From assembly GCF_964194155.1 (NCBI RefSeq), contig NC_135897.1:50778001-50842000 (forward strand): 64,000 nucleotides of DNA. Reading direction: 5' to 3'. The notes beneath the pieces were generated by a model. It searched no databases. It was given only the letters and a program-made list of their open reading frames with translations, and had not been told where the DNA came from. Origin of the DNA: Cetorhinus maximus. Taxonomy: Eukaryota. This document shows, one piece after another, positions 8,347 to 36,902 of the stretch (positions within the stretch are counted from its first letter, which is position 1; each line of letters begins with the position of its first letter). A program made the position numbers and the translations under genes.

Positions 8347-9837
8347 ATCAGACTGTCACAGCGCAGAGAAAACGTCCTGTTTTCAAAATGGACAATCGCA
8401 AATATTTAGAGCTTCCTTCTTTGAATAACTGGTTAGCATTATTAACTTGGATTGAAGAAATCGATTCATTTTAGTTGTTGTTGGACCTATTGTCATAAGC
8501 TCTGGCAGGCACCAAAGCCCAGAATTCTTTGCCAGTAGGATAAAGTAAGCGCCAGGATCAGAAAACAGTTTAATTCCCGGGTGTCTCAAAGAAGATACCC
8601 ATGAGGGTACATAAATTTCAATGAACAGTTTTATTAATAAGTCAAATATTTTTTGTACATTTGAGATTTGTTCTGTGTCTGTTACATTATAACGGTATTT
8701 TTGGTATATATAATTGAGTGGGTGAGGAATCAACATGGCTTGTCAAAGAATTTGGTACAAATTGAGCAATTTGATTTATTAATTTTGTCTTTAAGTTGTA
8801 GGTATTCCAGACATTTCCTCTATGCTTCCAAGCAAATTAGTTTTTTTTAAAGTAATGGTAAATTTGAGCCTGTCACCACGGTTAATGATTTGCATTCTGC
8901 TTTTTCATTACTAGAGTATTTATGCCAGTCAAGATTTTTTGCATGGTTGAAACTTTTGGGGCGTGATACCTCATGGTTACATGCTTGATACAAGCCTTTT
9001 ACTGAAATCAATATGTCGCTGATTGCTAACACTATTAATCTGAGAGATAATTTAGATTTTTAGACAGAATTGAATTCATGTAAATTTTTAATGATTATGG
9101 AACTGCCTTATCATCAAAACCAGAAGTCAACGAGGACCTTTTAAGATGCACTTTGTTTCTTTAAGCAAAATGATTTGTATCCTCCTCCTTATAGATGGTA
9201 ACCTTGAGGTAATATTTTTGAAATCTCATTTAAATCAGGCTTTGAAAATTCCATCTCTTTGTTTTAAACTTGTTTAATTTATGACAAGATGTGAGAAATT
9301 CAAACCGGTTTTGCATGTTAATTTAACACCATTGACAGGTATGCCTACTCAGTGGGGAAAAAATATGTCTCTTGGGTTATTTAGAAATCTTGTTCTGTGT
9401 TGTGAAGTGCCATTGCCATATGCTTTCAAATTTACATTCCTCTTTGAATATTGCATACTTTTGGGAGTTGTCATTCCAACCCGTTTCATTGAATGTGTGG
9501 CTGCTTTGACTACTTTTTAAAAAAAGAGAATATGACTGAGCATTGTAATTGATAATAACTTAATATACTGGTAAACCTGAGACCTGAAACCACTTAGATT
9601 TATGGGTGTTTATGTGCTATATATTAACACTCCTATCCTGGGTATGAGTGTTCTTCTGAGTACTGGCACCAGTTCCATTACATTTCTTTCCATTAAGCCA
9701 GGCACTTGGTTGACATTAGCCAGCCAAGAACTGTGAATATATATAAAAACAAAAAACTACTGCGGATGCTGGAAATCCAAAACAAAAACAGAATTACCTG
9801 GAAAAACTCAGCAGGTCTGGCAGCATCGGTGGAGAAG

Positions 9838-9881
9838 AAAAGAGTCGACATTTCGGGTCCACACGACCCTTCAACAGAACT
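9838..9881 (-). ncRNA. Degenerate minimal hammerhead motif (CUGUUGA core)
   Basis: Reverse complement agtt-ctgttga-a-gggtc-gtgtg-gaccc-gaaat-gtc-gact. Confidence 0.55.
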
Positions 9882-10483
9882 TTTATTTTTGCGTTCCTTA
9901 GCACTTGAGAGAAAGAGAAAAAGTTTCTTGTTGAGGCGTCGGATGAGGCGAAGAATAAAATGAAACTGGGGGCACGCGCAGCTTTGAAAAAGGGTGCAGC
10001 GGTGCTGCTGGAGGGAGAGGTCGAGTGTGTTCATATGGCGGCGCATGGCACTGAGTGTGGATCTCAGAATGCGACGGGAACAGCAGTCCGAGAAACGTTT
10101 TATGTCCCGGAGATACCTGTAATCCTGGGTGGGTTCGAAACAAGAGGGATGGAATTTCAGTTGAAATCCATGTGGGGTGAGTCGGAGACGGAGACAGTCA
10201 CTGAGAAAGGAAATATGGCTGTGAAAGCGGGTTTTAGTAAACACCTTGTCAAACACCAGGAGAGAAATGGAAAGCAATGAAGGTGCACAAGGCAGAAGAG
10301 ACAGGCGGAAATCCTGTCGGAGAACAGAGTAATACTTCTTCAAGGAAGGCATTTCTTGAAGAGAAGTGGCAGTCAATTAAACACAGAGATGAAAACAAAA
10401 AACTACTGCGGATGCTAGAAATCCAAAACAAAAACAGAATTACCTGGAAAAACTCAGCAGGTCTGGCAGCATCGGTGGAGAAG

Positions 10484-10527
10484 AAAAGAGTCAACGTTTC
10501 GGGTCCACATGACCCTTCAACAGAACT
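10484..10527 (-). ncRNA. Minimal hammerhead motif, CUGUUGA core variant
   Basis: Reverse complement agtt-ctgttga-a-gggtc-atgtg-gaccc-gaaac-gtt-gact; stems I and II intact. Confidence 0.65.
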
Positions 10528-18497: not shown

Positions 18498-19094
18498 CCA
18501 ATGTTTCCTTAAATAACTTACCAATTTCTTTTAAATTTTAAGCACCAGTATTTCAATTAATTCCTTACAAATATCTTTACTTGGAGCAGGCCAACTAAGC
18601 TTTCCATGCTTTTCCTGATAGAACTTAATCCAAATATACCTATTTCAGGTGTGAGTTAAATTCTAGTATACCAGTCAAAGTCTTATGATGTACGTTTAGA
18701 CCCCGACACAGTTTGTAGGTACCAGTGGAATGGCACACACGTGAAACCAGATGTTGAGTGATCCAACCAGTGGTTCTTAAGTGGACCGCTGCCAAGGTTA
18801 CAATGAAGATGGGCCCACATATGGATTTCAAGTCAAGTACATTGACCAGTAAGGCAATTGCAGTGCCTGCCCACTCTACCCTCAGTTGTCAAGAGAGCAA
18901 ATATTTAAAAGGGAACAAAGAGTGAAAACAACAATGATCTTTGGACATATTCTAGTATTTGGATTAAGTTCTGTCAGGAAAAGCATGGAAAGCTTAGTTG
19001 GCCTGCTCTAAGTAAAGATATTTGTAAGGAATTAATTGAAATACTGGTGCTTAAAATTTAAAAGAAATTGGTAAGTTATTTGAGGAAACATTGG
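18498..19094. repeat. 139-bp inverted repeat with 319-nt spacer
   Basis: Arms 18498-18636 and 18956-19094, 136/139 complementary. Confidence 0.95.
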
Positions 19095-21345: not shown

Positions 21346-23447
21346 CAGTGGTGGATTTACAGTTAGTGGGGCCCTGTGCTCAGCTTCATTCCCTTACCAA
21401 CCCCCACCACCCCCTCCCACCCCGCCCCACCAGCCTAGGGATCCTAAAGGCGAAGCCAAGAAAATACACAAATTAATCAGTGCTTCTTCACTTGTAAAAA
21501 CCTGCCTGTATGAATAATTGCCTTGTTGAAATCCGAGTTTACCTCTTGTCTGAATGATGATAAAGATGGTAAATATTACGATGCGAGGCGATCGAACATG
21601 GAACTTGCTGACGACAAAAGCCAAGGACAGATTATATGTGGAGAGAGATGGAGAGAGAATGTCTGAAGGTAGGAGAGGGAAGCTGACTAGATGCCCACTT
21701 GAACATTGATATGTCAGTCTGTTGGTATAATTTTGTTCAGAGACGGAGACAGCAGACTGGAGCCCTGCTCCAGTGCCAACAGTTACTGAGGCAAAACAGC
21801 GCTGACAATACATCCGTTACCTAGGAGACCCAAGAGCCATTGCACTTTACTGAGATCTCATTACTCACTGGAAAATCTCATGATAGGGTGCTCAGTGGAA
21901 GAGCACGAGCTGCTGTTGTGGCTTTAGCTGGCCCGTGTTACAATCATTTAAATTAAAATCAAATTAAAACTCAGCTCGAGGTCAATGTTTCAACCTCTGA
22001 CCAAACTGGCCAAGATTTTACTGAAACTCCTCTCCCCATCAAAGCTTGCTGATTATTAAGAGAGACTGGGAATGTATGCAGTGAAGCTCTGGGACTGCCC
22101 AGCATCTTCCCTCCAACATCCAACCACAGTCCATTTTCCAGTCCAGTTTCTGGTGTGTCTCTGTGCTGGACACGATGTCTGGACTGAGAGTCAAGGAATG
22201 ATTCTGAAGATGTGACTGTGAAACCAGCTGATAAGATGTAGCCCAGAGCAGTGCCAGGCAAATCTCTATTTATTTCCTGTCATTTAGTGTAACTTGGCAT
22301 TGTTGAGGTAAGAAGCTAGCCGTAAGTGTGTGTGTGGACTACAATTCCTCCTGTCCCAACATTGTGGGATGGTACTTTTAAAACCACCCGATAGCCATAG
22401 CAAAATTTAAATACTTGCATTTATATAGTGCCTTTCATGATCACCAGAAGCCCCAATGTTGTACAGCCAATGAAGTACTTTTGAAGTGGGAATGTGGGAA
22501 ACGCCGGAGCCAGTTTGCATCCAGGAAGCTTCCACAAACAATGTGATAATGACAAGAATCTGTTTTGTGTGATGTTGATTGAGGGATAAATATTGGCCAG
22601 GAGATCAAGGGTAACTCACCTGCTCTTCTTCAAAATAACCTCATGGGATCTTTTACATCCGAAGGTGGCATCTCTGACAGATCAGCACCTCTCTGGAGTG
22701 TCTGGATGGGAATGGGACTTGAACCCACAACTGTATGACTGTCAGCACAGAGCCACCGCTGATACCTTTAACCTGTGGCCCTTGCTATTCGTTCAAACAA
22801 CTCCCTACTTGCATTGGCGATCGTGGGATTTGGGTAGCTAACGGACTTCACTATTGTTGGGTCAAGTGAGTTGGCTCACCGTGTGCCCCTAGTGGTCTGC
22901 TCCAGGCTTGTTAGCAAGTGGTACACCTTGTATCAGACAGAGAGTGTATGCAGGAGGAGAGGGATTTATCAAAAAAAAGGGGAAGTATAATTGCTGCGGC
23001 AACCTGGTTAGAAAAGGAGCAATTCCTAGCTGTCTGTTAATATCATTTCTGAACATTTCATTCCCATTTCAAATTTACTTTTCTAGGCAACGCTTTCCTG
23101 GTGGAATAACAGAGTCCTACCTCAGACAGAGACTGAGATAGACCCACTTTGCGAAATGTTCATTTGTCAGTAAAGCGAGTGCATCTGAAAAGTGCTTTCT
23201 TTAGGTGTGATTTTGTAGCTGATCAGAATCAGAGACGTTGTCAAGACCGTCCCGGGTGTCTGTCATTCCCATCACACATGGGACTAGGTCCCAAAAATAA
23301 CTAATTTACTCGGCACTTCCCTTTTAAACTTTGCAAATGCAGCATCAGTTCGCGCACCCAGTTTGAATGTTTTGAAACTCATTCATTTTGCGACTCCCCC
23401 TGTTGTTTAGTGGCCCCAGGGTGTGTTTCATTATAAATCTGCCCCTG
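21346..23447. mobile_element. Non-autonomous hAT (Tip100-like) element
   Basis: TIRs cagtggtggattta / taaatctgcccctg; subterminal ggggccc/ggcccc; 8-bp TSD gcaggaag (21338-21345) / gcaggagg (23448-23455). Confidence 0.8.
22413..22766 (-). mobile_element. DeuSINE (SacSINE1-like) tRNA-derived SINE
   Basis: Reverse strand shows tRNA head (ggttcaagtccca), Deu domain (gatgtaaaagatcccatg...gaagaagagcagg...cctggccaatatttatccctcaa) and L2-type tail ctatataaatgcaagt. Confidence 0.85.
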
Positions 23448-24868: not shown

Positions 24869-25587
24869 TTCATATTGATGGTTTCTCATAGTCTGTTGGT
24901 CTCTTACTGCTGTGCCATCCAAAGCATTGCATGACTTTACATCCCTCTGAACACTTACCATGCATGACCATAATGCAGGAATGCCAGAAAGATGCACAAT
25001 AATCTGCAACTGAAACTGAAACTTCCCCACCTGGTTATACCTTTCATCCCAAGCCCCAACAAAACTGTTGCAGTGCCATGGTGGCAATTAAATCCAAATC
25101 ACACCCTGGTCTATTCCCCCACTCCTCTGGCACTTTTCCTCTTTCACCACCTCACCTTGTTCCACCCCTCTGACCTTTTCATTTAAAATCCACATTCTCT
25201 ACTGCCTACCCAATTACAGTAAAAATGTTCTCACCAAGATATCTTTTGTCACTTCCCTCCCTCAGCCTGTGCGTGGATGACTTCTCATCCTCAGTGATTT
25301 CAACATCCATTTCAACAACTCATGCTCTCTCTCCTCTGAGTTCACTGCCCTTCTATCCTCCACCAATCTCTCACTCCATATAAACTCCATCCCTTTGCCC
25401 TTGCCATCTCACCTGAGCCTCATTACCCCATCATGTCAATCACAGATAAGACCACCTCTGATCACTTCCTTATACCACTTTTCAGGTGTATTTCCCTTAC
25501 CCCTCCCACCCCTTCTTCCTGCTTTGTCTGCTCCTCTCTCTCAATTTACTTACAACTAATTATTGGCCCACTATTCACCATTACATT

Positions 25588-25739
25588 GAGGTGTCAGCTG
25601 TGGCTCAGTTCATAGCACCCTCGCCTTTTAATCAGAGGGTTGTGGGTTCATGTCCCACTCCCGGAAACCAAGAACTGTGATTGTACTCGAAAGAGTTGCA
25701 ATCTGTGACTGTTGATAACTCGAAAGAGTTTCAAAAATA
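25588..25739 (+). mobile_element. Short tRNA-derived SINE with double GAAA-hairpin tail, copy 1
   Basis: A box tggctcagttca, B box ggttcatgtcc; short A tract; perfect 16-bp TSD tattcaccattacatt (25572-25587, 25740-25755). Confidence 0.88.
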
Positions 25740-26110
25740 TATTCACCATTACATTCCTGCAGTGACTGATTTTCACAGCCGCACCTTTGATGCCCTGATC
25801 CTAAATGAAACCATTACTCTCTCTCACACTGGTCATTCCCCTCATCATCAGCCCTCATTTTTGCTCGCTAAAGTCTGAGGGACGCAGACTTGAATGGATA
25901 TGACAGACAACTGGTTTAGCTATTCGCTGCCATATCTGGCTGGATCGCATAAAACGTAATCAATTCATGCTTTGTCTACCAAAATCCTCAATCTTGATTG
26001 CTTCATCATTGGTGGTCATATCTTCAGCAGTCATGCCCTAAACTGTGGAATTCTCTCCCTAAACAGTCCATCTTTCCTTCTTTAAGATGCTGCTTAAAGA
26101 TGACCTCTTT

Positions 26111-31280: not shown

Positions 31281-32386
31281 AGGATTGCTGAAAAAAGAGA
31301 CATGTTGAATTGATGGCGACTGACAGTTAACTGCCAAGCATTGTTTGAAATTTAAACCAGGCAGCTTAACCCTGATTGGTCAAGGCATTGCCCTGAGGAA
31401 TGAGGCAGCGAATGGCTGTCACTTATTTTGTTTAGCTGAAACAGGCACAATGTGTCTACATATTCTTTCTGTCTGCAAAGAACAGGGCCTTGTGTATTAA
31501 TTTATGTAGCTTCCAGTACATGCAAATGCACCACACTGCGAGCCTGGCTGACAATCTTAAATCGGTTGTCACTGTCATTCTTTGCACAATGAGGGTTATT
31601 TAGCAAATGTTGTCCAACCGCAGAACCAAATCTCATGTTGGACACTGTGTTTTGAGTTTTGCAAGCACGGGCTGGTTGGGGTCTGTACCTTGCCCGTTGC
31701 GAACAGCAGCTGGGACATGCCGTTTGATATGATCTGCCAGTCTTTGGGATGTACGGCCTGCATACCTAGCATCACACCGGCACTGAAATTCATATACCAC
31801 AATTACTCATTTGTGTAATCGGCAGAATATCTTTTTGGCTTGATGGCAGCGCCCTGCTCGTGGCGAATTCAACTTATGTTGCTACTGTATAGTAGCAGTG
31901 TCAAACAGCTAGCTTCACCTGTTGCTCAAATCTTTGAGATACCTTGCCCTTCCAGGGTAACCTGGGATAGACTGGGCACTCTTCAGGGCCAAAAGTCATG
32001 GCCTTTAGGCTCATTCATGCAGACAGAAAAAACATGCAGACACATTGTGCCTGTTTCAGCTAAACAAAATAAGTGACATGTATTCGCTGCCTCATTCCTC
32101 AGGACACTTCCTTGAACATTCAGGGTCAAGCTGCCTGGTTTAAATTTCAAGCAATGTTTGGCAGTTAACTGTCAGTCACCATGAATTGGTGTATTCTCCA
32201 TGGCAATGCCTCTACCAATCAGAGTCCACTTGCCAACCAATCAGCACTCCCTTCTCATACAGCATAAATTGTTGTTTTGCCCTTATATTGGTATTCTTGT
32301 GAAGTGTCCGGATGAGTGTAAGACGAAAAGCTTCAATATGTCTCTTTTTTCAGCATTACTCAAGTTTTGTCCTACCAAATAACTAT
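31281..32386. mobile_element. Second Penelope-like family with inverted terminal repeats
   Basis: Minus-strand GIY-YIG VVYEFQCRCDARYAGRTSQRLADHIKRHVP (~31715-31800); inverted arms ~31316-31490 / 32007-32181; TSD aaatataagctg / aaatatatgctg. Confidence 0.88.
32304..32340 (+). ncRNA. Mutated minimal hammerhead of the second PLE family
   Basis: gtgtc-cggatga-gt-gtaag-ac-gaaa-agct-tc; core CUGAUGA changed to CGGAUGA; palindromic aagctt at helix III. Confidence 0.55.
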
Positions 32387-36758: not shown

Positions 36759-36902
36759 GGTGTCAGCTGTGGCTCAGTTCATAGCACCCTTGCCTTTGAA
36801 TCAGAAGGTTGTGGGTTCATGTCCCACTCCCGGAAACCAAGAACTGTGAATGTACTCGAAAGAGTTACAATCTGTGACTGTTGATAACTCGAAAGGGTTA
36901 CA
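36759..36902 (+). mobile_element. Short tRNA-derived SINE with double GAAA-hairpin tail, copy 2
   Basis: 7 mismatches in 144 nt against 25590-25733; no TSD seen. Confidence 0.88.

Follow-up and report, generated by a model that had tools for sequence, protein, structure and literature searches.

A young shark SINE with Tx1-type hairpin ends whose insertion sites vary with the RNA bases behind the hairpin

The closest described counterpart of the elements analysed here is the SINEU/Tx1-Mar pair of crocodilians, in which a Tx1-clade LINE mobilises a SINE and the two have a preference for a DNA transposon in common (Kojima 2015, PMC4494074). The sections of that paper drawn on here also describe tandem copies that sandwich a duplication, template switching that adds 5' sequence, and subfamilies that vary in target strictness, and they attribute the differences between SINEU subfamilies to different LINE partners and not to bases of the RNA. 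Another relative is Tx1L of Xenopus, which inserts into a DNA transposon and has AGTT downstream of its nick; the excerpts available of that report (PMC1950540) make no mention of a partner SINE, unlike the situation in the shark. The alligator family Tx1-9_AMi is, by its description in PMC4494074, a Tx1 family that favours Harbinger transposons and inserts about 300 bp from the 5' end. For the contribution of RNA to target choice, it is established for L1 that the last about 4 bases of the primer pair with the RNA, the snap-velcro arrangement (PMC4014453, as excerpted), and for SART1Bm and R1Bm primer-template pairing has been proposed, with target-like bases past a stem-loop setting the start of reverse transcription (PMC7265360, as excerpted). 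In sharks, the part of PMC5499810 consulted describes SacSINE1/DeuSINE elements with a tRNA-related head, and the rows of PMC3747384 consulted hold shark SINE/LINE pairs with CR1-type partners only.

Against this background, the shark SINE resembles SINEU in its Tx1 partner and differs from it, as far as the cited sections go, in three respects: its head is tRNA-like and not derived from U1 or U2 (Rfam returns no snRNA match), its target is Harbinger-like and not Mariner-N4, and the link to the partner consists of a common 3' hairpin in addition to common targets. Like SacSINE1/DeuSINE elements, it has a tRNA-related head. Unlike DeuSINEs as described in the same excerpt, it is 141 nt long, lacks a central Deu domain and an L2 tail, and has a Tx1 and not an L2 partner. 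The pairing bases of L1, SART1Bm and R1Bm are, in the sources at hand, fixed (poly(A), telomeric and rDNA, respectively), whereas in the shark the bases, and with them the sites occupied, differ between subfamilies. The literature covered, which excludes Repbase, Dfam and most subscription papers, holds no account of the present SINE or of retargeting of SINE subfamilies through their 3' bases. Since the pairing of a SINE with a Tx1 LINE, the targeting of DNA transposons and the stacking of copies are already known from crocodilians, these features alone would make a modest new family. What is added here is that the base beside the inferred nick follows the RNA.

Anatomy, copy number and age of the SINE

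The window analysed is a 64-kb stretch of Cetorhinus maximus DNA, in which the first-pass annotation had pointed out a compact element with a tRNA-like head, two tandem hairpins and a perfect 16-bp target-site duplication. All of these parts were located in copy 1 (Table 1). In a contig from run X10 of organism B, a related organism, precisely positions 25572-25739 are absent, and the repeat at copy 1 is therefore a true target-site duplication. The second copy is 95% identical to the first across 144 nt. The tails of the two differ at the four positions that had been noticed before, two of which are A/G changes yielding U-G pairs, but copy 1 belongs to a subfamily that we call type A and copy 2 is of an intermediate subfamily, so that the earlier "consensus of both copies" blends two subfamilies. 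The predicted fold of copy 1 beats 200 of 200 shuffles (z -3.2) and that of the type-A tail 199 of 200; the fold of copy 2 is not better than its shuffles (z -1.0). The core stem measures 4-6 bp and shows no compensatory change.

Table 1. Positions in the window of copy 1, its parts and its target, and of copy 2
Feature	Position	Strand	Remark
Upstream target motif	25565..25572	+	last T doubles as first base of the apparent duplication
5' copy of target-site duplication	25572..25587	+	16 bp; site empty in organism B
GA dinucleotide	25588..25589	+	precedes most full-length copies; element 5' end or non-templated
tRNA-like head	25590..25662	+	A box 25601-25612, B box 25645-25655; aligned to 10 older copies
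Hairpin 1	25679..25703	+	from the fold; Tx1-type core 25685-25696; rarely used insertion end in type A
Hairpin 2	25712..25734	+	core 25718-25729; usual 3' end of the element
Putative 3-4-nt guide of type A	25731-25733	+	within hairpin 2
Short A-rich stretch	25734..25739	+	after hairpin 2
3' copy of target-site duplication	25740..25755	+	16 bp
Copy 2	36759..36902	+	intermediate subfamily: type-B-like hairpin 1, ACA end; no duplication visible

As had been stated, the tail is unlike the other tails in the window, which holds no match to it outside copies 1 and 2. Nor did we find a piece of Tx1 ORF2 in the 64 kb, or a tRNA when the window was run through ARAGORN. Rfam, at E up to 10, gave no match over the element, be it ribozyme, hammerhead, snRNA or tRNA, and only two chance snoRNA matches elsewhere in the window. 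A decayed copy of an older tRNA-headed SINE related to the head of copy 1 lies at 22700-22770 on the minus strand. The window also contains three long inverted-repeat pairs (9743-10527, 18498-19094 and 31308-32187; arms of 139-170 bp, 91-98% identical, spanning 600-900 bp), which are probably non-autonomous DNA transposons.

The worry that only these two copies might exist is put to rest by the genome of 3.99 Gb, where a 20-nt head motif has 13,465 exact matches, spread across many contigs. A 43-nt motif of the type-A tail is matched 4,192 times genome-wide and a 27-nt motif of a further subfamily, type B, 1,129 times. The element is thus a short, non-coding sequence interspersed at high copy number, with the footprint of retroposition: duplications, 5' truncations and two loci with empty orthologous sites in organism B. 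The suggestion that the SINE is young is confirmed as well. Heads of single-copy type-A elements differ from their majority sequence at 0.76 of 73 positions on average (n=50) and those of type B at 1.07 (n=28/29; one copy with an indel was dropped), and with so few differences both subfamilies must be young. At 90% likeness, hairpin 2 has no cover in organism B, which would fit a type A younger than the split. The RNA runs on record include none listed with the SINE; run X20 holds SINE contigs, and its RNA nature being a guess, it was counted neither way.

Like a SINE2 head, the tRNA-like head has an A box and a B box, each with family-wide changes, and it aligns with copies of an older tRNA-headed SINE. 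For this alignment we took the majority sequence of 10 older copies from the retrieved DNA; the likeness is ~84% by eye, in keeping with the previous description of a DeuSINE-like head with altered boxes, and stops at about position 75, the remainder consisting of a linker and two Tx1-type hairpins. Judged by sequence, then, the head is derived from an older tRNA-headed SINE of the same genome. That older SINE is probably of the SacSINE1/DeuSINE family, a name owed to the shark literature introduced above and not to sequence comparison.

Several of the details first proposed as marks of the family do not extend to it. The A tract is present in copy 1, but AAAA within 12 nt of the hairpin occurs in only 4 of 67 single type-A copies and in 0 of 45 single copies of the type-B sample. 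GAAA loops are indeed found in both copies and yet vary elsewhere, so that A tract and GAAA loop together are no family signature. Likewise, the CTGTGA said to precede each hairpin is missing before hairpin 2 of type B. Because AAAA is rare in the family and other copies carry the flanks of other loci, the A-rich stretch at 25734..25739 is likely to be flank brought along from the parent locus and not a poly(A) tail.

A number of variants were met along the way. One has a changed last stem and a terminal T run that would serve as its own Pol III terminator (L012, L054, L060, L066, L153 and L288), and often no spacer separates it from the next unit or from a truncated LINE. Single-hairpin units with an A-rich linker closer to the older SINE (L033, L034 and L053) are possibly the ancestral form. 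A has been replaced by G in the hairpin-2 5' arm of a sub-lineage of ~1,300 copies (L298-L327), which also has TCC more commonly at its 3' junction; TCC would keep the lower stem paired with the changed 5' arm.

The Tx1 partner

In the window and the first 60 loci, the hairpin was found outside the SINE at four loci, each time at the 3' terminus of a LINE piece that a SINE follows immediately. Six long stretches with full-length elements were read, and four of them hold an unbroken ORF2 of 1,296 aa together with an ORF1 of ~715 aa. ORF2 has endonuclease and reverse transcriptase domains and a weak zf-RVT match below the Pfam cut-off; the zinc knuckle, expected in ORF1, also scores below it. 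Among solved structures it is L1-like; it is 49% identical to the Xenopus Tx1L protein (YTX2_XENLA, P0004) over its full length of 1,300 aligned columns, and about 35% identical to most of the full-length fish proteins that it matched. By sequence, we assign the LINE to the Tx1 clade and there to the Tx1L lineage, which bears out the earlier guess, made from the long duplication, of a Tx1/L1-like partner: an intact LINE of this lineage carries the same hairpin core at its 3' end.

SINE and LINE ends have ~20 nt in common, including the hairpin core. Shuffled sequences fold about as well as the tail of the LINE itself (z -0.2), and the loop there reads AAAA in 92 of the first 100 ends listed. 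Given the shortness of the common tail, the weak LINE hairpin and its mostly AAAA loop, the signal is not a GAAA tetraloop as such. Both elements end at the same hairpin base upon insertion, their duplications have the same median length of 14, and a SINE head lies at most 35 nt downstream of 10 of 30 LINE 3' ends. The LINE itself has a clear target preference, with 26 of 30 3' junctions starting TAC and many copies in a Harbinger-like site. At least two LINE subfamilies have the hairpin, one about 96-99% and one about 80% like the LINE at locus L061. Taken together, it is likely that the SINE is copied by the enzyme of the Tx1 LINE, and we are highly confident that the young SINE and its Tx1 partner are both real.

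One array, at locus L061, consists of three SINE units, then a 5'-truncated ORF2 and another four units, all at one site. There, on the minus strand, the first two SINE units before the LINE recur as the first two after it, a private mutation included, as if the insertion had duplicated ~310 bp via SINE homology. Elsewhere, full-length and truncated Tx1 elements stand head to tail at one site with spacers of ~12 bp (L231-L234 and L236; L207-L209). The 5' UTR of full-length Tx1 elements (L231:213-1060, plus strand; L232, L233, L234 and L236) contains a length-variable array of CTG triplets broken by a fixed 6-mer, about 600-1,000 nt long and open in all three frames.

Insertion sites and the bases behind the hairpin

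To sample target sites, we used patterns that break off short of the element's 3' end. They supplied 90 type-A loci from contig C1 and 70 type-B loci from C1 and the beginning of C2; loci were taken in the order of the listing, and some tandem neighbours were passed over. Three and five of these, respectively, were dropped for a repeated 3' flank (among them L122, a separate locus with the flank of L121), leaving 87 type-A and 65 type-B arrays. A target consensus of TTCAAA was rejected, as the query itself ended in those letters and had selected for them. The search for duplications placed no constraint on positions -1 to +2. It gave a duplication anchored at the hairpin base for 46 of 87 type-A and 30 of 65 type-B arrays and a displaced one for five of each; ~43% of the loci had no duplication under the rule used (36/87 and 30/65) and stand outside the base test.

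By the standard model, the 5' copy of the duplication is the original target DNA. In it, the first base after the T that both subfamilies have in common (+1) is T for 30 of 35 single type-A copies, and all 21 single type-B copies have A (Fisher p 1e-13), and the preference fades past +3 or +4. Two type-B copies have TAT in the 5' copy and TAC, the letters of the RNA, in the 3' copy. Upstream, by contrast, the two subfamilies agree: an 8-bp motif is common to type-A and type-B sites and, more broadly, to the LINE and all SINE subfamilies. The sequence upstream of copy 1 agrees with it by eye at 6 of 8 positions, and the motif there is likely to be read by the Tx1 endonuclease. On the bottom strand the motif begins AGTT. 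If the nick is placed at this AGTT, as we infer, the arrangement resembles that of Xenopus Tx1L, where, in the cited part of the report, AGTT stands beside the bottom-strand nick (PMC1950540).

The preferred site of the LINE lies in a repeat in which DDE_Tnp_4 scores above the cut-off in 3 of 3 upstream fragments; on the other side are Myb matches below the cut-off (E 0.035 and 0.052). It is for this combination that we call the site Harbinger-like. Insertion occurs 550-900 bp beyond the transposase fragments, on the stretch that separates them from the Myb-like gene, and this position differs from that of Tx1-9_AMi. Single type-A copies use it less often than single type-B copies (6/67 versus 12/44, p 0.016). 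Type A was also seen at a second site within the Harbinger-like repeat, at TCA behind a good upstream motif (L047 and L127). Several units are present in 20 of 87 type-A and 20 of 65 type-B arrays, with LINE and SINE stacked at one site.

Further populations of ends bear on whether the RNA bases steer insertion. LINE-type ends are followed by TAC 1,133 times and by TTC 7 times, and six of these seven belong to a diverged subfamily; a slightly narrower LINE-end pattern gave 31 ends with a non-A base. A broader TTC pattern had 1,307 matches, of which all 30 inspected were SINEs. A population of LINEs ending in TTC was thus not found with these patterns, which require the same hairpin core.

Type-A elements that end at hairpin 1 offered a prediction made beforehand: the RNA continues with GCA past this hairpin, so such insertions should lie at G sites. 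The corresponding pattern occurs 60 times genome-wide; 42 loci remained once matches that had a second hairpin or were followed by another unit had been removed, and 21 of these have a duplication. Base +1 is G in 13 of the 21, as compared to 2 of 37 ordinary type-A insertions (p 5e-6; rate of false duplications, 2/300), and A or T in the remaining eight. Relative to the upstream motif, five of the 13 G cases are in register, five fit better with a slip of one base upstream and three are ambiguous, one of them mislocated. In the five slipped cases the endonuclease would still meet a T next to the nick, so that its preference for A or T there may persist and the RNA may slip to pair. One hairpin-1-ending locus (L350) is empty in four of four runs of organism B, with no listed difference there in a table that hides minor ones. 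The G variant of the hairpin-2 5' arm differs significantly from its counterpart only at the 3' junction (17/28 versus 7/38); its 5' duplication copies give 4/7 versus 5/19 (p 0.2).

Altogether, the 3-4 RNA bases behind the hairpin likely help to choose the insertion site: they are seen to covary with it, presumably by way of pairing. The same bases are predicted to be paired in the lower stem of the hairpin, so that release would be needed before they could pair with a primer. Copy 1 itself is an exception to the target rule. Its target is an ATT site behind a good upstream motif, and it has carried along extra bases beyond the usual end, which fits read-through.

A possible RNA guide and its alternatives

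We consider it probable, as an account of the whole, that a SINE with a Tx1-type hairpin is copied by the LINE enzyme and that the 3-4 bases behind the hairpin match and select the site. Pol III would transcribe the SINE and run on into the flank, as suggested by the lack of a terminator after the hairpin. The first T4 is a median 130-214 nt downstream, and the transduced flanks support read-through: L018 carries 63 nt of the flank of L006, ending just before a T run, and L014 and L021 have a carried flank of 31 nt. The ORF2 protein would then bind the hairpin and start copying at its base, the latter being where insertions are seen to end. At the target, the endonuclease would read the observed 8-bp motif and nick at the position proposed above, after which the RNA bases behind the hairpin may pair with the nicked DNA end, ACA with ACA sites, UCA with TCA sites and GCA with GC sites, in line with the covariation. 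These guide bases probably derive from the beginning of the target-site duplication of the parent itself, and the preference would then be inherited; acquisition of the guide in this way is likely how type A moved off the preferred Harbinger-like site of the LINE. The 5' copy of the duplication would remain a valid target, which is likely to explain the stacked arrays, and template jumps may add units without spacers where SINE units abut truncated LINEs.

An obvious alternative keeps the same SINE/Tx1 pair and leaves targeting to protein only. Type A would be moved by other, TCA-preferring Tx1 elements, and its matching 3' bases would be nothing but target duplication, much as Kojima (2015), in the section cited, ascribes the different sites of SINEU-1/2 and SINEU-3 to different Tx1-Mar partners (PMC4494074). 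That at least two LINE subfamilies carry the hairpin (those about 96-99% and about 80% like L061) would suit such a scheme, and a slip in register at T sites may account for five of the 13 G cases. We nevertheless regard it as rather unlikely. A population of the TTC-ending LINEs that it predicts did not turn up among ends with the same hairpin core (7 against 1,133, with the 30 inspected broader matches all SINEs), type A and the LINE occur in the same arrays and have the upstream motif in common, and one and the same type-A head, when it ends at hairpin 1, has a third preference, again in step with the RNA. Even the slipped G cases agree with the letters of the RNA.

Two more distant readings do without the Tx1 partner. 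The likeness of the hairpins could be incidental and the SINE be moved by an RTE, L2, CR1 or Penelope-like element through ordinary 3' microhomology, as might be argued from the ~20 nt that SINE and LINE tails have in common, from a core stem of 4-6 bp that lacks compensatory change and from a LINE tail with a z of -0.2. It is hard, however, to reconcile with an identical insertion end, the upstream motif, the median duplication length of 14 and the Harbinger-like site, nor with direct LINE-SINE junctions, and we think it improbable. Still less credible is a function for the element as a Pol III RNA or as a ribozyme that cleaves itself, with GAAA tetraloops as structural elements. The type-A tail fold, better than 199 of 200 shuffles, speaks for it. 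So would CTGTGA...GAAA, which looks superficially like a hammerhead core. Against it stand the empty Rfam result over the element at E up to 10, the lineage-restricted insertions with duplications and the AAAA loop of most LINE ends.

Returning to the RNA bases as selectors of the site, a further step is to see in them a heritable guide, an idea to which we give somewhat better than an even chance. The protein would fix the upstream half of the target; the downstream half would be set by the 3-4 bases that follow the hairpin and stem from the site of the parent's last insertion. One change would then have let a SINE subfamily quit the safe-harbour site of its LINE and outnumber the LINE, and the enzyme could be re-aimed by a change of base.

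In conclusion, the shares of protein and RNA in the target choice of site-specific retrotransposons are known mostly from engineered tests with L1, R1 and SART1. The shark provides a natural experiment, in which one young and intact enzyme meets RNA ends of three kinds, each with its matching target preference, and the SINE sites with empty orthologues in a relative number in the thousands. It puts an intact enzyme of the Tx1L type on offer for insertion tools, and it suggests a route by which SINEs escape the target limits of their LINE.
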